Positions 8,137 to 15,978 of a stretch of DNA of 64,000 nt are shown here, in pieces; positions within the stretch are counted from its first letter, which is position 1, and every line of letters starts with the position of its first letter. The notes beneath the pieces are model-generated. The model did not search any database. It was not told where the DNA came from and saw only the letters and a list, made by a program, of their open reading frames with translations. The translations under genes were made by a program, and so were the position numbers. This DNA is from a virus (lineage: Duplodnaviria; Caudoviricetes): positions 1 to 64,000 of IMG/VR virus record IMGVR_UViG_3300032218_002424. One strand, given 5' to 3'.

Positions 8137-9885
8137 ATGGCAAGAAAATTTTTAGTTAGTTTAGACTTAAATAAGAATGAGTTATTGAATGCAAGAGTTC
8201 AAAACCTTCCTACAGCATCTAAACCAGCAAGTCCTGTAACAGGTCAAATTTACTATGACACTACAGACAATTTCCTTTATTTCTGGAACGGATCAACCTG
8301 GCTAAGAGCTTCAGGTGATTTTGGTGCTTCAGGACAAACAACAGCATTAAAATTTGGTAATACAAAATCTGATGGAACTTCTACCTCAGTTGCAAGAGCA
8401 GATCACACACACTCAATCCCAGACATTTTGGGAACATCTTCTTATGTTGGTGTTGCAAAAGATGCCACAACTGGCAATGCAACAATTTCTCTTGTTGATT
8501 CTGGCGTAACAGCTGGATCATACGGTTCAACAACAAAGATCCCAACATTTACAGTAGATTCAAAAGGTCGTTTAACTGCAGCTGGTGAAACAAACGTAGC
8601 AACTAATCTTTCTATTGCTGGAGAAACTGGCACAGATACAGTAAACCTTCTTACAGATACATTGACTGTAACTGGTGATTCAGCAATTGATACAGCAGTA
8701 ACAGATAACAGAATTACAATTACTGCAAAAGATGCCACATCATCTCAAAAGGGTGTTGCTTCATTTGACTCAACAGACTTTACAGTAACAGGTGCAGCGG
8801 TAACATTAAATGCTGAGCGTGTACAAGATATTGTTGGTGGATTAGTACAAAGCGGAACTGGAATTACAGCAACATACAATGATGCTGGAAATACAGAATC
8901 AATTAGCATTACAAACACTGGTGTAACAGCTGGTACATATGGTTCTGCAACAAAAACTTCAACAGTAACAGTAAATGCACAAGGACAATTAACTTCTGCA
9001 TCACAACAAGATATTTCAATTCCATCAACACAAGTAAATGACTTCCAAGAAGCCGTTGAAGATGTTGTTGGAGCTATGGTTACATCTCCAAATACAGAAA
9101 ACGGTATTGTAGTAACCTATGATGATACAGCAGGAAAGCTTAACTTTGATGTTAATGATCCTACAATTACACTTACAGGAGATGTAGCTGGTTCTGCTAC
9201 AATGACAAACCTCGGTAACGTAACAATTACCGCAACAGTTCAACCAAACTCCGTAGCACTTGGAACAGACACTACTGGAGATTATGTAGCTGGAATTCAA
9301 GGAACTACAAATCAAATTTCTGTTACAAATTCAGGTGGAGAAGGATCATCAGTAACAATTGGTCTTCCACAAGATGTAACAATTTCTAGAAATCTTACTG
9401 TTAATGGAAGCCTCGATGTAGTTGGAACAATTAACTCTGTTAATTCTACACAGGTTAATATCGTTGATAATAAAATTAATTTAAACTCTAATCAGTCTGA
9501 ATCTGCATCACCAGTTCTTGATTCAGGTCTTATTGTTCACCGTGGATTAGAAGCAGATGCCTACTTTACATGGAATGAAACAACAGACCGTTGGGAAATG
9601 GGATTTGAGCCAGGATACGGAGTTGAAGAAAGACAATTTGCGGTAGCCCGCAAGTATGCAGCAGATTTAACAGCAGGAACATATGTAACGGTATCTGGTG
9701 GCGGAACAGTATTTGTTGTTAACCACGGATTAAATACTAGAGATGTTCAAATTCAAGTTTACGAATCATCTGCAGAGTGGAGCAATGTTGAAGTTGATAC
9801 AGAAAGAACAACTGTAAATACAGCAACAATTAGATTTGGTACAGCACCAGCAGCTGGAGCATACAGAGTCGTTATTACTGGATAA
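8137..9885 (+). CDS. Long virion fibre protein, 582 aa
   Basis: GQIYYDT..LYFWNG; two GVTAG.YGS....TV...G.LT.A repeats; QD.VG...I..TY.D repeats; C-terminal HGLNTRDV domain. Confidence 0.8.
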   Translation: MARKFLVSLDLNKNELLNARVQNLPTASKPASPVTGQIYYDTTDNFLYFWNGSTWLRASGDFGASGQTTALKFGNTKSDGTSTSVARADHTHSIPDILGTSSYVGVAKDATTGNATISLVDSGVTAGSYGSTTKIPTFTVDSKGRLTAAGETNVATNLSIAGETGTDTVNLLTDTLTVTGDSAIDTAVTDNRITITAKDATSSQKGVASFDSTDFTVTGAAVTLNAERVQDIVGGLVQSGTGITATYNDAGNTESISITNTGVTAGTYGSATKTSTVTVNAQGQLTSASQQDISIPSTQVNDFQEAVEDVVGAMVTSPNTENGIVVTYDDTAGKLNFDVNDPTITLTGDVAGSATMTNLGNVTITATVQPNSVALGTDTTGDYVAGIQGTTNQISVTNSGGEGSSVTIGLPQDVTISRNLTVNGSLDVVGTINSVNSTQVNIVDNKINLNSNQSESASPVLDSGLIVHRGLEADAYFTWNETTDRWEMGFEPGYGVEERQFAVARKYAADLTAGTYVTVSGGGTVFVVNHGLNTRDVQIQVYESSAEWSNVEVDTERTTVNTATIRFGTAPAAGAYRVVITG

Positions 9886-9896
9886 GGGGTTTATAA

Positions 9897-10148
9897 ATGT
9901 CTGTAAAAAGATTAGTACCCTTAAATACAGTTGAATTAGCTAATAACCCTGCAACAGGTCGCATTGGCGATATTTATTACAATACAACATCACAAGAGTT
10001 AAGAGTATATACTGGAACCGATTGGATTTCTGTTGGTGGAAATCAAACTGGCATTTTAGAACACATTCATACTTATGATGGAGATATTTATTCTGTAGGA
10101 TCTTTCAATGTTCAATCAACAAATACAATTGACGGAGGACTCGCATAA
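9897..10148 (+). CDS. Small fibre adaptor protein
   Basis: GDIYYNT..LRVYTG.DW motif; HIHTYDG; ends IDGG. Confidence 0.65.
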   Translation: MSVKRLVPLNTVELANNPATGRIGDIYYNTTSQELRVYTGTDWISVGGNQTGILEHIHTYDGDIYSVGSFNVQSTNTIDGGLA

Positions 10149-11629
10149 TGGATATGACAATCCAAGTTCGCAGAGGAACTACATCGCAATGGGCAGCATC
10201 TACAAGAATTTTAAAACAAGGCGAAATAGCTTTAGATACAACATTAAATAAAATAAAATTTGGTGATGGAACTTCCTTATGGTCAGCTTTGCCCTTTGCA
10301 AATATTCTTCCATCAGAACTTAAAGAATTAACTCAAGATTATATTGGCGAGGCATTTGCAGCTGGTACACATAGCCATATAACAGTAACTTATGATGATG
10401 CAACAAATAAGTTTAGTTTTGCTACCGCTCCAGAAGTTGTTTTATCAACTGGTTTAAGTAATACACTTGGAGATTATTTAACTGCATCTGCATTTAATGC
10501 TCAATTAGATTCTGCTGGTGGAACACCAACATTAGATCAAGATTCTTATATTAGAGATATAGAAATTTCTCCAAGAATAGCAAGAATTGATTCTCCTGCA
10601 TTTACTGGAACCGTAAGCGGCATTACAAAAATAATGGTTGGACTTGGCAATGTTGATAATACATCTGATGTAAACAAACCACTTTCAACAGCAAATACAG
10701 CAGCACTTGCCTTAAAAGCACCAATTGCTTCTCCAACATTTACTGGTACTGTTTCTACAGGAAATCTTTCTGTTTCTGGAAACTTAACAATTACAGGAAC
10801 AACAACAACTCAATCAACACAAAATCTTTCTGTTACAAATCCACTTATTTATGTTGGAAGTAATAATCAAGCAAATATAATTGATGTTGGAGTAGTTGGA
10901 AGTTTTAATAACGGAACATATCAACATACAGGTTTAGCAAGAGATCACTCTGCAAATAAATGGAAATTATTTAAAGGCGTAACAGATGAACCATCAACTA
11001 CAATAAATTGGAGTCAATCTGTTTTAGACGACATTGCCGTTGGAAATCTTACATCAACAACAATTTCATCTCCTACAATTTCATCTACAACACAATTAAA
11101 TGCTGTAGGTTTAACAGTTACTGGAACAGTTATTCTTCCAGATAATGCAATTAAAAGTTCTCTTTTAGACTGGGAACATTACAACACTGAAGCAGATCTT
11201 CCATTAGCAACATTAAAACATGGAATGTTTGCACACGTTCATGGGACTGGTTCAGCTTATTACGCACATTCTGGTGGCTGGTACAAACTTGCAAAAACTT
11301 CTGATGTTGAATTAATTTCATATGGCACAGCAGCAAGTGGAGCCACATATTTAATTACATCTGCAAATACATCAAAAGTAACAGAACTTACAAACACAAC
11401 AGAAATAACAGTTACAATTCCATCAGACCCAACAGATTCAATTTATCCAATTGGATCAACAGTTGAATTTAGACAAATGGGTGACGGAAGATTAAAATTT
11501 GTTCCTACTTCACCAGCAACACTTGTATCAACTGACTCCTACATAAGAACAAGAACAAAATATTCTTCTGCCGTACTTGAAAAACGAGCATCAAATTCTT
11601 GGATTTTAGTAGGGGACATTGATGCATAA
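10148..11629 (+). CDS. Fibre protein with Mtd/hyaluronidase-type N-terminal domain
   Basis: IQVRRGT..QW....L..GE...DT...K.K.GDG; VGLGNVDNTSD..KP; KAPIASPTFTG; C-terminal ..W.LVGD tip domain. Confidence 0.8.
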   Translation: MDMTIQVRRGTTSQWAASTRILKQGEIALDTTLNKIKFGDGTSLWSALPFANILPSELKELTQDYIGEAFAAGTHSHITVTYDDATNKFSFATAPEVVLSTGLSNTLGDYLTASAFNAQLDSAGGTPTLDQDSYIRDIEISPRIARIDSPAFTGTVSGITKIMVGLGNVDNTSDVNKPLSTANTAALALKAPIASPTFTGTVSTGNLSVSGNLTITGTTTTQSTQNLSVTNPLIYVGSNNQANIIDVGVVGSFNNGTYQHTGLARDHSANKWKLFKGVTDEPSTTINWSQSVLDDIAVGNLTSTTISSPTISSTTQLNAVGLTVTGTVILPDNAIKSSLLDWEHYNTEADLPLATLKHGMFAHVHGTGSAYYAHSGGWYKLAKTSDVELISYGTAASGATYLITSANTSKVTELTNTTEITVTIPSDPTDSIYPIGSTVEFRQMGDGRLKFVPTSPATLVSTDSYIRTRTKYSSAVLEKRASNSWILVGDIDA

Positions 11630-13128
11630 TGTTTAAAAGAAATAGATCTAGTGTAATAACGTCTCGTTTAAAAGCATTTCAAACTTTTGCAGATTTATTT
11701 AGTCTTACTTCAGGTTTAAAAAATGGTTGGAAAACTTATCGTGGAACCTGGTCATCAACAGGAACTTTAGCAAATTCTTCAGATACCGCACAAACTTATA
11801 CTTTAGCTGGAACCAAAATGGCTTCAACAAATGTAATTGCTTCAGCAAATGTTACTGGCGGAACAGGGGTAGCATTTTGGATAACAGATGCTCAATCTTG
11901 GTATGCTACAGTAGCATATAATAATACAACAACCTCTTATCCTTGTAATGCTTCATATGTAACCTCTGGATCAAATCCAGCTTCAGGAAGCTGTTGTTCA
12001 TCCACTTCTCTTGTTTCTGCAACTCAACCAGCATATAGTTATTCTGTAGCTGCTAGTTATCAAAATGCATATTCTTATACATATGGTGCATCATATCAAC
12101 AGGCATATTCTTATAGTTATTCTGCACAATATAATGCTCCATATTCATATACTTATTCAGCACAATATAATAATGCATATTCTTATACATATTCTGCTGT
12201 TTATCATCCTTCAACATCATATTCATATAATTATACAGCTACATATACAGTATCAGGCGGTGGAACAACTTCAATTGGTTGCTATACAGCTTTTTCTGGA
12301 TGTCCTACAACATATAATGGATATGCCGTTACAGAAACAAGTGCTCCAGGATTTTGTGGTTGTCCTACTGGACAAAATAAACATTGTTGTACATATAATG
12401 CCCCAGGAACTGGATCTTATTCGTGTCCTTCTGGCGGAACCTTATCTGGAAATATTTGTTATGGAGCAACTGGACAAACTGGTTCATATTATGCCTGTGA
12501 TTATGGAGGAACATTATTTGCAGGAACATTATGTCAAGTAAATGTTGGTGCATCATATTCATGTCCATCTGGTGGAAGTTTGTCTGGAGCAACCTGTACA
12601 GTAAGCGTAGGATCATCATACTCTTGCCCATCTGGAGGTTCTGTATCTGGAACTAACTGTATAGTAAATGTAGGAGCATATTATTATTGTTCTGGATCAG
12701 ACTCAATATCTGGAACTACATGTACACGTCAAGTTGCTGGATATTATTATTGTAATTCTGGAACATTAAATGGTTCAAATTGCACTATTCAAGTTGCAGC
12801 AGTGCCAGCAGTTTATGGATGTTATACGGCAACAACTCCAACACCAGTAAATAATTATTATCTTAGAGTAATTCAATCTTCAGGAGGTGCAATTAGCACA
12901 GTGGGATCAGATGTTGCACTATCAACAGCCCCATTTGCTATTCGAATTGCTTCTTCTGGAAATTCTGTAGTTTCAACAGCATATTCAGACTCTGCATTAT
13001 TAACACAATTAGGAACAAGAACAGATAGTTTTACTTCTCCAAATAAAACTGGTATAACTGGAATTATTAAATCTCCAGCAGACTATATTCAGGGCTCGAC
13101 AGTATCCAACTTTTCTGCTACAATATAA
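11629..13128 (+). CDS. Tyr/Cys-rich putative adhesin: split lectin-like base with inserted repeat stalk and Cys knob
   Basis: 6 Tyr repeats, a 6-Cys segment and 6 YxCxxGGxLxGxxC-like repeats; follows a fibre-tip gene. Confidence 0.7.
   Translation: MFKRNRSSVITSRLKAFQTFADLFSLTSGLKNGWKTYRGTWSSTGTLANSSDTAQTYTLAGTKMASTNVIASANVTGGTGVAFWITDAQSWYATVAYNNTTTSYPCNASYVTSGSNPASGSCCSSTSLVSATQPAYSYSVAASYQNAYSYTYGASYQQAYSYSYSAQYNAPYSYTYSAQYNNAYSYTYSAVYHPSTSYSYNYTATYTVSGGGTTSIGCYTAFSGCPTTYNGYAVTETSAPGFCGCPTGQNKHCCTYNAPGTGSYSCPSGGTLSGNICYGATGQTGSYYACDYGGTLFAGTLCQVNVGASYSCPSGGSLSGATCTVSVGSSYSCPSGGSVSGTNCIVNVGAYYYCSGSDSISGTTCTRQVAGYYYCNSGTLNGSNCTIQVAAVPAVYGCYTATTPTPVNNYYLRVIQSSGGAISTVGSDVALSTAPFAIRIASSGNSVVSTAYSDSALLTQLGTRTDSFTSPNKTGITGIIKSPADYIQGSTVSNFSATI
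12031..12246 (+). repeat. 36-bp (12-aa) degenerate tandem repeat x6, consensus AYSYTYSAxYxx
   Basis: gcatattcttata... units visible in DNA and protein. Confidence 0.85.
12418..12783 (+). repeat. ~63-bp (21-aa) degenerate repeat x6, consensus YSCPSGGxLSGxxC
   Basis: Units start near 12418, 12490, 12556, 12619, 12682 and 12745. Confidence 0.85.
13096..13124 (+). promoter_or_regulatory. Promoter TCGACA-N17-TACAAT with extended TG, for 13147..13684
   Basis: Spacing and consensus, inside the end of the adhesin gene. Confidence 0.5.
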
Positions 13129-13146
13129 AAAAAGAAAGAGTGTAAA

Positions 13147-13395
13147 ATGACAGATCCATTTGACCGCCCAGCTAGACCATGGGACTTATTTAATAGAAAT
13201 CTTGGAAGAGTCTCAACTCAAGTTGCAGATAAGAGGCTTGAAATCTGCAAAGCTTGTCCAGAATTATTACCGACTGGCAATTGCAAAAAGTGTGGTTGCT
13301 TTATGTCTGCTAAGGTAAAGTTGCCTAATGCAGAATGCCCATTACATAAATGGGAACAAGAAAGAGTATCTTACAAGGAGGAAATGAATGACTGA
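13147..13395 (+). CDS. Small Cys-rich protein (DUF6171-like: RLxICxxC...CxxCGC.M..K......CP..KW)
   Basis: 6 Cys in a recognisable spacing. Confidence 0.75.
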   Translation: MTDPFDRPARPWDLFNRNLGRVSTQVADKRLEICKACPELLPTGNCKKCGCFMSAKVKLPNAECPLHKWEQERVSYKEEMND

Positions 13396-13684
13396 AGATT
13401 CAGATTATATTGGCCCAGGAAGAGACGCTCCAGCATTTGAGCCATCAAGAATGACACCCCCAAACAAGATCGCTTTTGTTATTGATGCAACAGTTGTTGA
13501 TGTTTTACATACAGATGATAGACTTGCAGCAATATTTTTAAGTGAGCCTAAAGTAATTGATGTAACAGAACATTATGAAAATAACCCTAATTTAAATATG
13601 AGTGGTTGGCTTTATGATGGTCAAAACTTTTTAGACATAACAAATAGAGAAGAAAGTGTCCCTTTAGCACAGGATAATCAATAA
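13388..13684 (+). CDS. Acidic putative fibre/adhesin assembly chaperone
   Basis: AFVID..VVDV...GW.YDG..F pattern of small chaperones that follow adhesin genes. Confidence 0.6.
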   Translation: MTEDSDYIGPGRDAPAFEPSRMTPPNKIAFVIDATVVDVLHTDDRLAAIFLSEPKVIDVTEHYENNPNLNMSGWLYDGQNFLDITNREESVPLAQDNQ

Positions 13685-13704
13685 ATGGGTTATATACCTC
13701 AAAA

Positions 13705-13713
13705 TGGTATAAT
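13705..13713 (+). promoter_or_regulatory. Extended -10 TGGTATAAT, 6 nt before ATG 13720 (leaderless)
   Basis: No SD; spacing puts +1 at the ATG. Confidence 0.65.
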
Positions 13714-13719
13714 TTATAG

Positions 13720-15978
13720 ATGAGCTCAACTACCACAGATTATCCAGTTTCTATAGATACTTTTGTAAATCCTTTATCTACTGATTCAGTAAAAGCCGTA
13801 TCTCATGCTGCTCAACACTCAAAGGTAAACGATGCTTTACATGCCATAGAGCTTAAACTTGGTGTAAGCGGTTCAACAGATGCTACTTCTATAGAAAATA
13901 GACTTACAACACTAAAGTCTTTTGTGGACAATATAAATACTTCTCAGATTATTGAAAACTCTGGTTATCTTTTCTTTACTAAAGAAAGGGCCCAAGATGC
14001 AATTGCTGAATCATTTAATAATACAGATCACCAAAATATAAGTGTAGTATATGATGATGCAGCAAATAAATTTATTTTTTCTACTGGCCCAAGAGTAGTT
14101 CTTTCAGATGGCTTGTCAAATACCCTTGGTGGATATTTAACAGTCTCTAATTTTGAGGCACAAAAAGATCAACCTAATGGAGTTCCAACTTTAGATCAAG
14201 ATGGTTTTATTAGAGATTCTGAAATTCCAGATTCAATAACAAGAGATACAGAATTAAGCACAGCAAGCAATGCTGCTAGGTTAGCCGCAATTACAGCTGC
14301 TTCTGCAGATGCAACAACAAAGGCAAACAATGCTATTTCAACTGCAGTTGCAGCCGCAGCAGCAGACGCAACAACAAAAGCAAATACAGCACAACAAAAT
14401 GCTATAGCTGCAGCATCACAAGAATCAGAAACTAGAAATGCCGCAACATTAGCAGCAGCTGGAACATATACTGATAATAAAGTTGCTGGGCTTGTTAATT
14501 CAGCACCAGCAGCATTAGATACTCTTAAAGAGTTAGCAGATGCTTTAGGTTCAAATCCTAATTTTGCTACTACAGTAACAAATAATTTAGCAGGCAAGTC
14601 TAACATAGGTCATGGCCATGTATCTACAGATATAACAGATTTTATTGAAGCAGCCCAAGATGCTTCGGCAGTTCTTTTTAATCATGCAAACCATAATAAT
14701 GTTACTGCCACATATGACGATCAAAATAATAAGATTATTTTAACTGTAAGTCCACAACTTACACAAGAACAGGTTCAAGATTATATTGTTCCACTTTTCC
14801 AAAGTGCCAACAACAAAAATATGAACATCATGTATGATGATGAATCAAATCAACTTATTTTAGAAGCTATTACAGAGCCATCTAAGGCTGTTATGTCAGA
14901 TACCCCACCATCAAGTCCAGCACACGGTGCTTTTTGGTTAGATACAGATGAATTTAGAAGCGGTGTTAGAGCACTTAAGATTTATAATAAGTACCCAGCT
15001 GCTTATAAGGGAGACTATAATAACGGTGGGTATTATGCATTAAACGATGTTATTTCTATTCCAATTGGTAGTCCATATGGAACTGCTGGAGATTTTTATA
15101 TTAGAACAGGAAACCCTGGTAACCCAGGTTATCCACCAGGAGCTCCAGGAAACTGGACACTATATTCATTTACTCCAAATTGGGAGTATGCTTCAACTGC
15201 TTTAAGTCTAACTACAGAAAATGTTTGGACAACTAAAAATACTTTTAATCAAGGTATTATTATGGGAATGGATGTTGCTCCAAGCAATCCAGTTGAAGGA
15301 CAAATTTATTATAATCTTGCCGCAGAAAAGCTTAGAGTCTTTGACGGCATAATTTGGAAAGATGTTTCGGGAGGTGCAGGTGGAGGAGGACTTCCAAGTG
15401 TATCTACAGATGGAACAGCAACTCCAGCAACACTATTTTTTGGAATGATTGCTCCGCCAACAGCAGCGGCATTACCAGGAGACATCTGGTTTGATATTGA
15501 TGACAATGGAATTCCATTTAATCAATTCTTTACTGGAACAACTGCACCAGATCCAACTCAGTATGAATTTTGGGTTGACCCAAGTATTGCTCCTGGCGAA
15601 TTAATATTTAGTGACACAGTTGCTCCCACTCCACAATACGTTGGAGACCTTTGGATTAAGACGGATGATCAAGAAGGTGAACTTGTAAGAATAGATTCAG
15701 TTAGTCCAGATCCAGCATTAGTTCAATTATGGGTTGACACACAAGATTTAGATACTCCTTCATATTATTCTAATTTATATTTTCCAACATATGCTTCAAT
15801 AACTAATTTTCCATCAGCTTCCACAAAGCCAGGAATGTTGGCTGTAGATGGATCTAGCGGAATAGTTTATGTTTCAATAGGAAATTCTTGGATTCCTCAG
15901 CCACAAAAAACTGATTTAGATTTAACTACAACAGTTTCTAGAGGAAACGAAGCATTAATTTGGATGGGCTTTTTATAA
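13720..15978 (+). CDS. Long virion fibre protein, 752 aa
   Basis: YP.SID...H...NDA..AIE.KLG start; Ala-rich coil; APAALDTLKELADALG.NPNFATT; repeated P...GD.W.D motifs. Confidence 0.8.
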   Translation: MSSTTTDYPVSIDTFVNPLSTDSVKAVSHAAQHSKVNDALHAIELKLGVSGSTDATSIENRLTTLKSFVDNINTSQIIENSGYLFFTKERAQDAIAESFNNTDHQNISVVYDDAANKFIFSTGPRVVLSDGLSNTLGGYLTVSNFEAQKDQPNGVPTLDQDGFIRDSEIPDSITRDTELSTASNAARLAAITAASADATTKANNAISTAVAAAAADATTKANTAQQNAIAAASQESETRNAATLAAAGTYTDNKVAGLVNSAPAALDTLKELADALGSNPNFATTVTNNLAGKSNIGHGHVSTDITDFIEAAQDASAVLFNHANHNNVTATYDDQNNKIILTVSPQLTQEQVQDYIVPLFQSANNKNMNIMYDDESNQLILEAITEPSKAVMSDTPPSSPAHGAFWLDTDEFRSGVRALKIYNKYPAAYKGDYNNGGYYALNDVISIPIGSPYGTAGDFYIRTGNPGNPGYPPGAPGNWTLYSFTPNWEYASTALSLTTENVWTTKNTFNQGIIMGMDVAPSNPVEGQIYYNLAAEKLRVFDGIIWKDVSGGAGGGGLPSVSTDGTATPATLFFGMIAPPTAAALPGDIWFDIDDNGIPFNQFFTGTTAPDPTQYEFWVDPSIAPGELIFSDTVAPTPQYVGDLWIKTDDQEGELVRIDSVSPDPALVQLWVDTQDLDTPSYYSNLYFPTYASITNFPSASTKPGMLAVDGSSGIVYVSIGNSWIPQPQKTDLDLTTTVSRGNEALIWMGFL

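Follow-up and report, generated by a model that had tools for sequence, protein, structure and literature searches.

The 64,000-nucleotide stretch considered here (the window; positions 1 to 64,000 of IMG/VR virus record IMGVR_UViG_3300032218_002424) contains, at 11629..13128 on the plus strand, an open reading frame (ORF) for a 499-amino-acid protein. Its product appears to be a tail-associated, lectin-fold base that carries a nested stalk of disulfide-pinned layers with a Cys knob at its tip, each layer consisting of one unit from each of two arms. We judge this reading to be probable, at roughly 60%, on the strength of the module order of the protein, the fold of its scaffold, the co-variation of its two repeat arrays in count, position and period, and its gene context.

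Module order and the split lectin scaffold

The protein begins and ends in the two halves of a predicted concanavalin A (ConA)-like beta-sandwich, residues about 27-99 (11707..11925) and 410-499 (12856..13125), which enclose a Cys-rich insert of about 310 residues (62% of the protein); all of these features lie on the plus strand. The insert opens with an N-side base unit of the form C-x15-CC (residues 100-124, 11926..12000; Cys 106, 122 and 123) and continues as an outward arm of six Tyr/Ser repeats of 12 amino acids (residues 136-209, 12034..12255), a Cys-free stretch whose units begin at residues 136, 148, 160, 172, 184 and 198. A knob with six Cys follows (residues 218-254, 12280..12390; Cys 218, 225, 243, 245, 253 and 254, pattern C6C17C1C7CC), and then a return arm of six Cys-closed hairpin repeats of about 21 amino acids (residues 264-385, 12418..12783), with the C-x10-11-C pairs 266/277, 290/302, 312/323, 333/344, 354/365 and 375/385. 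The motif Y-x-C-P-S-G-G-x-L/V-S-G-x-x-C describes four of these hairpins; D-Y-G-G occurs in the second, and hairpins five and six are degenerate. The insert ends in a C-side closing unit, Y-G-C-Y-T (residues 396-409, 12814..12855; Cys 398), the proposed partner of the base unit. An earlier note, made from the DNA letters of the window, had described this order of modules (three Cys, six Tyr repeats, a six-Cys knob, six hairpins and a closing Cys) with an even number of Cys at each level, and both descriptions hold on the 499-codon ORF, in which all 22 Cys have been mapped.

The Tyr units are spaced by 12, 12, 12, 12 and 14 residues and the hairpins by 24, 22, 21, 21 and 21, so the longest spacings lie at the knob-proximal end of both arrays. 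Such mirrored irregularities had been pointed out before, and they are real in the window; among other family members they are inconsistent, and we have dropped them as family-wide evidence. Tandem Repeats Finder reports a 36-nucleotide period (3.9 copies, 77% matches) at 12058-12197 and a 63-nucleotide period (2.3 copies, 73% matches) at 12537-12679; because these periodicities are only 73-77% identical, the repeats are old. We note that a 158-codon ORF rich in His, Ile and Leu codons (12065-12541, plus strand, in another frame) extends over the Tyr array and knob; in all likelihood it arises from the repetitive TAT/TCT-rich sequence and is no gene. At 12243-12252, the linker behind the innermost Tyr unit, contigs from two other samples show pairs of +1/-1 indels that cancel out within 10 nucleotides, and a short stretch is thus frame-shifted in those variants.

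An AlphaFold2 (AF2) model of the whole protein, built from a 48-row alignment, has a mean predicted local distance difference test score (pLDDT) of 67.8 and a predicted template-modelling score (pTM) of 0.39. The scaffold reaches a pLDDT of 76-90 (76-90 in the N-half, 79-89 in the C-half) and both repeat arrays about 72-81, the Tyr array (72-78) showing a strand pattern of 6+3 residues per unit. In an exhaustive VIA-align structure search, the model superimposed on the carbohydrate-binding module (CBM) CBM66 4b1m_A (Z 17.4, root-mean-square deviation 2.5, 149/165 residues aligned), the baseplate protein of mycobacteriophage Douge (8zdo_a, Z 15.1), the C-terminal receptor-binding domain of mycobacteriophage TM4 gp23 (9n6a, Z 14.8), the CBM2 of Lactobacillus phage J-1 Dit (5ly8, Z 13.2) and dozens of lectins and CBMs with Z>10, and every match spanned model residues about 20-499, that is, both halves. 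Each single-domain match aligns 149-176 residues, at 5-14% sequence identity to the matched chain. About 150-175 aligned residues drawn from the range of the whole chain indicate that the N- and C-halves form one domain, and residues 100-409 are therefore a true nested insertion whose two ends must meet. The earlier proposal of a split lectin-like beta domain is in this way confirmed, the flanks (about 27-99 and 410-499) aligning jointly to single ConA-like domains.

By superposition on solved members the modelled scaffold thus falls in the ConA-like lectin/glucanase fold, and it is probably a lectin/CBM beta-sandwich of the CBM66-like kind. By sequence it belongs to no curated lectin or CBM family (Pfam to E<=10, PHROG, NCBIfam). 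Foldseek against the PDB returned nothing at E<=0.001, just weak lectin/galectin rows, a PDB sequence search gave only potempin A at an insignificant E of 0.42, and the ESM Atlas held no usable match to residues 125-405 (template-modelling score <0.3); BFVD gave weak ConA-like matches to actinophage minor tail proteins. CBM66 and the phage modules 9n6a, 8zdo_a and 5ly8 resemble the scaffold in their beta-sandwich fold (Z 13-17), and the matched modules are likewise parts of tail or baseplate proteins, in several cases those of actinophages. They differ from it in that it shares no Pfam, PHROG or NCBIfam membership with them, and in that no matched chain aligns with the Cys-rich insert.

Co-variation of the two arrays and of the outer Cys layer

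A word-indexed protein search found about 45 full-length homologues of 446-537 amino acids that share the same module order, so the architecture is not due to chance; the identical-length 499-amino-acid form recurs on contigs from three more samples of two studies, and among sequencing runs no RNA data set is listed as containing it. We parsed 54 distinct subfamily sequences, taken from the word-search proteins and from ORFs at 92 loci. Regular-expression counting proved unreliable for Tyr units, hairpins and closing units alike, as it overran into the knob and missed alternate units, and the counts were curated by eye (P0042, P0039 and P0024 have five hairpins, P0006 and P0008 seven Tyr units). 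The number of Tyr units equals the number of canonical hairpins in 48 of the 54 sequences: seven are 4/4, 27 are 5/5, eight are 6/6 and six are 7/7, the 5/5 and 7/7 classes including the five curated rows. A naive shuffle, which ignores relatedness, gives p<=5e-5 for such equality. In a tree of the lectin halves alone, the joint count needs nine parsimony changes among the matched forms, and 5/5, 6/6 and 7/7 are each found in more than one clade. Co-variation of the two counts among homologues was the test that the earlier note had set for its out-and-back interpretation, and the homologues pass it.

The positions of recent duplications carry the same message. One young clade includes recorded forms in the series 5/5, 6/5, 6/6, 7/6 and 7/7, in which the duplicated Tyr units are 2-3 (100% identical in DNA) and then 2-4 (86-92%), and the duplicated hairpins are 4-5 of 6 and then 4-6 of 7. 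These mirrored duplications indicate an exact antiparallel register in which Tyr unit i corresponds to hairpin n+1-i; a parallel register would make hairpins 2-3 the partners, and these show only 54-59% identity. The repeat periods also shift together, from 12 amino acids (Tyr) and 21 (hairpin) in the clade with one closing unit to 14 and mostly 23 in the clade with two.

A second, outer layer behaves in the same manner. Across the superfamily, the N-side base unit, C-x11-17-C-x0-1-C, and the C-side closing unit (an aromatic residue, x, C, Y/F/T/S, T/S) are equal in number in 16 of 17 architectures. They number 1/1 in the window clade, the P0003 clade and P0134; 2/2 in the P0035 clade, P0042, P0050, P0138, P0142 and P0143; 3/3 in P0054 and P0062; 4/4 in P0157, P0061 and P0077; and 7/7 in L026 and L031. 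The sole mismatch is P0212, with 5/7. Degenerate layers lose their Cys in pairs. In P0061 two middle N-side units have C instead of CC and two middle C-side units have Gly in place of Cys, and in P0040 and P0044 the outer N-side unit retains one Cys and both closing Cys are kept. These paired losses fit one disulfide inside the N-side unit and another between the arms, and they speak against a four-Cys metal site; the disulfide map of the protein that we draw from them is a putative one, based on sequence comparison.

Physical pairing of the two arms would account for all of these patterns, and co-folding points in the same direction. With the Tyr array (residues 128-214) and the hairpin array (256-394) supplied as separate chains, the pair scored 0.41, which is weak support, and the best of three controls scored 0.01. 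In the calibration of the method, 58 of 80 solved complexes and two of 110 mismatched pairs came up to the mark; those that did so with a score of 0.60 or less comprised only seven of the 80 solved complexes but both of the mismatches. The co-folding runs agree in at least 99% of contacts, with a pLDDT of 87 for the partner and 89 for the other chain; with an unrelated partner the pLDDT of the Tyr array is 36. The out-and-back, nested interpretation of the repeats in the earlier note thus draws support from co-varying counts, mirrored duplications, repeat periods, the outer layer and the split scaffold.

In the structure that we propose, the chain would leave the sandwich at one loop, run outward and return, so forming nested layers. 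The outer layer would join the N-side C-x15-CC to the C-side Y-x-C-Y-T, pinned by two disulfides, of which one lies inside the N-side unit and the other links the arms, and six middle layers would each combine one 12-residue Tyr/Ser repeat with one 21-residue disulfide-closed hairpin in the register i to n+1-i, with the six-Cys knob at the tip of the stalk. If a layer needs a repeat from both arms, only equal-count forms would persist, and length would change by duplication or deletion at two mirrored sites in the gene, through short-lived one-sided intermediates. Such a rigid stalk would keep the knob and a Tyr-rich surface at a distance from the virion, where they could touch the host envelope; glycan binding may be a further contribution of the ConA-like base, and the tip part would be exchanged between lineages by recombination. 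The 22 Cys, if oxidised, would make 11 disulfides, possibly with the aid of the DUF6171 and acidic proteins encoded downstream (see below), or after lysis in oxic water. To judge from its fold and gene context, the protein may serve as an adhesin, presumably located in the virion and binding a receptor there.

The knob, contrary evidence and alternative readings

The window lineage's knob type is present in only three of the 54 subfamily members and resembles the centre of the distant proteins P0046 and P0076. The main pattern, CC18C2C3C8CC10C, is found in 41 of 54, and P0039 and P0042 have yet other knobs; the knob is swapped as a cassette between lineages. It had been expected to be hypervariable, which is not the case in the main clade, where it is as conserved as the flanking scaffold (71% against 67% identity); point hypervariability is rejected there, and cassette exchange takes its place. 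Differences between close variants are concentrated toward the tip. Of the 25 amino-acid differences from P0002, which is 95% identical, 22 fall within residues 136-386 (Fisher p 1e-4), and among variants that are 95-96% identical they are densest at residues 203-292. In comparison with L001, the synonymous divergence (dS) is 0.26 in residues 196-292 and 0.06 in the scaffold, and the ratio of non-synonymous to synonymous divergence (dN/dS) is 0.28. Positive selection in the tip finds no support in these values; that dS is raised too suggests imported segments, that is, recombination. Origin of the variability in a diversity-generating retroelement with an Mtd-like target was also considered and rejected, since the 109-kb record has no RVT_1 match and the studied protein (P0001) is encoded in a single copy, with no second partial copy.

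Several observations weigh against a nested, paired stalk. Six of the 54 sequences have unequal counts: P0033 is 7/4, P0023 7/5, L005 7/6, L070 6/5, and P0044 and P0045 are 4/2. All six lie on zero-length terminal branches, with lectin halves identical to those of a matched sister, and in each the hairpins are outnumbered by the Tyr units; what separates L005 and L070 from their matched sisters L002 and L008 is 63-nucleotide hairpin units that are 97-100% identical in DNA (DNA was read for the L loci only, P0023, P0033, P0044 and P0045 being protein records). The unequal forms are either recent slippage intermediates or collapses in short-read assembly, and all of the homologue sequences come from metagenomic short-read assemblies. 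The statement in the earlier note that stalk length could change only by paired gain or loss is therefore too strict, unless the one-sided forms are such collapses. The outer-layer exception P0212 is a shorter relative of L031 (L031:3890-5692, 7/7) whose missing N-side units are near-identical to their neighbours, and is either a true deletion or an assembly collapse of near-identical units. On the structural side, the full AF2 model has a low pTM, and its base unit (103-135) and closing segment (390-405) have a pLDDT below 50; the co-folding score is of the weak grade given above. The same hairpin repeat forms long arrays without a Tyr partner in TraN-like, RHS and pilin-like proteins, and can probably fold alone. 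The conservation of the main-clade knob belongs on this side as well.

In an alternative reading, two independent modules stand in series, the Tyr/Ser array being a linker or separate sheet and the hairpin array an autonomous TraN-type rod, and the counts being equal through shared ancestry and coincidence. Hairpin arrays of five to nine units do stand alone in TraN-like, RHS and pilin-like proteins, the 7/4, 7/5, 7/6, 6/5 and 4/2 forms are on record, and AF2 of the insert alone (12-row alignment), a poor model with an overall pLDDT of 37, gave some confidence only to the hairpin array (50-67, against 23-29). We nevertheless think this reading unlikely, since the four equal-count classes recur in separate clades with nine joint changes, recent duplications fall at mirrored positions, and both periods shift by +2 residues together; the mismatches are all at zero-length tips and each is short of hairpins, as collapse of a near-identical 63-nucleotide unit would give. 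The ends of the insert must in any case meet, since the lectin halves are one domain.

It is also conceivable, although doubtful to our minds, that the protein is not the receptor-binding part, its ConA-like domain binding glycan or docking on the fibre and the insert forming a rigid strut, shield or spacer, or else a decoration with affinity for environmental polysaccharide. Carbohydrate-binding modules without catalytic activity are the best fold matches, main-clade knobs are conserved, and only about 25 residues precede the lectin domain, with no recognisable virion-attachment domain. Against this reading, close variants differ mainly in the distal insert and not in the lectin halves, and knob types are exchanged between lineages; the superfamily keeps its scaffold and has completely different inserts, as expected if the insert carries specificity. 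Highly improbable, in our estimate, is a third reading in which the Cys bind metal (Zn or Fe-S) and the 3+1 Cys of the outer layer make a tetrahedral site, by analogy with the iron-held needle of the T4 fibre. Each outer layer does have four Cys (3+1), the CxxC...CxxCxC pattern of the neighbouring DUF6171 protein could handle metal, and virions assemble in a reducing cytoplasm. But degenerate layers keep exactly two Cys (P0061 keeps the pair of the N-side unit and loses the inter-arm pair, P0040 keeps one N-side Cys and the closing Cys), there are just two Cys per hairpin, Cys totals are even and often not multiples of four (22 here, 18 in P0044), and vicinal CC is unusual in Zn sites.

Gene neighbourhood, relatives and implications

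The window was taken from the record of an uncultured phage, a viral contig of 109 kb that CheckV rates as 93% complete. Outside the window, at G000:C1:86749-86922 (locus L094), the same record has a gene of the WhiB family (PF02467, E 7e-13). Such genes typify phages that infect Actinobacteria, and the host is accordingly indicated to be actinobacterial. Phages of 'Ca. Nanopelagicales' have been brought into culture (PMC10202952). The gene under study lies in a tail-fibre/baseplate block, in which the genes that start at 8137, 10148 and 13720 show similarity to tail-fibre or minor-tail PHROGs and to Mtd_N, and related loci have the same neighbours. Immediately upstream is a gene for a 493-amino-acid tail-fibre protein (10148..11629, plus strand; Pfam Mtd_N, E 6e-13; PHROG minor tail/tail fiber). 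The two genes have one base in common, where the upstream stop codon runs into the start codon of the studied gene (11627-11631), which suggests translational coupling.

Downstream on the same strand is a gene for an 82-amino-acid DUF6171 protein with six near-invariant Cys (13147..13395; PF19668, E 9e-8). It lies 0-26 nucleotides 3' of the family gene in 41 of the 43 loci with room for it, even where the insert of the adhesin is unrelated, and is up to 83% identical to the window's copy where the adhesin is only about 30% identical. Its pattern C-x2-C-x8-C-x2-C-x-C-x12-C is conserved at 0.98-1.0 for the Cys in 51 sequences. A literature search found no paper that mentions DUF6171; it may take part in oxidative folding or in assembly. 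Third in this conserved set comes a gene for an acidic 98-amino-acid protein (13388..13684, plus strand) that matches no family in Pfam, PHROG or NCBIfam, and a homologue of it follows DUF6171 in 37 of 41 loci.

Megablast of 10000-14000 and tblastn of the studied protein against 50,697 GenBank phage records gave no match; its relatives are on viral and metagenome contigs that, judging from their names, we take to be of freshwater origin. Among the 265 matches of an exhaustive HMMER search, many are proteins of 270-420 amino acids that match only residues 1-120 and 400-499 and have entirely different Cys-rich inserts. The number of insert Cys is even in 71 of 72 superfamily members. On these sequence features we propose a previously undescribed superfamily, defined by a split ConA-like domain with a nested Cys-rich insert and by a DUF6171 neighbour, both of which the studied protein has.

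HMMER also gave significant matches to the hairpin motif (residues about 255-390) in TraN-like, RHS and pilin-like proteins, and neither Pfam nor NCBIfam has a model for the hairpin repeat itself. The TraN-like matches P0059, P0104 and P0105 carry PF06986, with their hairpin arrays outside that domain, and the studied protein has no match to PF06986 (F_T4SS_TraN) at E<=10; the name TraN given by JGI to some homologues has no other basis than the shared hairpin repeat. The TraN-like, RHS/YD and Saccharibacteria pilin-like proteins, all of them extracellular adhesive or surface proteins, have Y-x-C-P-x-G-G-x-L-S-G-x-x-C hairpin repeats in their N-terminal parts, but there the arrays lack a Tyr-repeat partner and are not enclosed by a lectin domain. 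In one unrelated pilin-like protein with an N_methyl motif (P0102, 549 amino acids), a 9-residue Tyr/Asn array, a unique segment containing Cys and nine 17-residue CPxGG hairpins follow one another in the order seen in the studied protein, and the combination of a Tyr array with a hairpin array may therefore occur outside the lectin scaffold. Two small members, P0153 and P0126, have 4-residue C-Y-x-T repeats going out and 5-residue C-N-P-Y repeats coming back around a single CPxGG-like hairpin, an arrangement that forms a small Cys ladder in which each arm contributes one Cys to every rung; with only two such proteins, we set them aside as an additional test of pairing.

The known systems nearest to it in working principle would be the tip needle of T4 gp37 and the ultralong complementarity-determining region H3 (CDR H3) of bovine antibodies; the studied protein belongs to neither. 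As Bartual and colleagues are said to have described in 2010, the gp37 chain runs out along the needle to the distal head and back. Gp37 is thus similar in being a phage fibre protein with an elongated beta needle, an out-and-back path and repeated cross-links. It differs in being an intertwined homotrimer held by His-x-His iron sites, where the studied protein has Cys pairs as its proposed cross-links, arms of two different repeat types and a lectin fold at the base. Seven His-coordinated iron atoms lie along the gp37 needle of the long tail fibre (PMC6957217). The studied protein has no HxH motif and only two His (193 and 252), and so is not an iron-stapled needle of the gp37 type. The bovine ultralong CDR H3 (PMC5994613, PMC8602281) resembles it as an antiparallel stalk that grows from a loop of a beta-sandwich and carries a small disulfide-rich knob, and the latter paper states that stalk length matters for stability there. 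The antibody scaffold is, however, an immunoglobulin, and its stalk has neither repeat layers nor disulfides, being a simple ribbon of two strands; diversity is somatic in the antibodies, and in the studied family it would come from germ-line recombination and repeat slippage. The studied gene carries two unlike tandem arrays whose copy numbers co-vary. We tentatively suggest, at somewhat less than even odds, that the family represents a natural display stalk of adjustable length, made from two repeats about 400 nucleotides apart with coupled mirror duplications, whose intermediate forms would have been captured in lake metagenomes, together with a two-gene maturation system (DUF6171 and its acidic partner) for disulfide-laddered virion proteins in the reducing cytoplasm of actinobacteria.

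A literature search found nothing on Cys-rich tail proteins of freshwater actinophages, and the sequences collected here define a large unannotated family of such proteins, from phages whose hosts include some of the most abundant lake bacteria. Proteins with tandem repeats usually gain or lose units in a single array at once; the two dissimilar arrays of this gene appear to be held equal, which would be a natural example of distant repeat loci that are structurally coupled. For protein engineering, a small knob on a rigid stalk whose length can be adjusted would also be attractive as a display scaffold. For the phages themselves, the combination of a lectin scaffold, a freely replaceable disulfide-pinned outgrowth and two conserved helper genes may explain how varied host recognition and the building of disulfide-rich virions are achieved.

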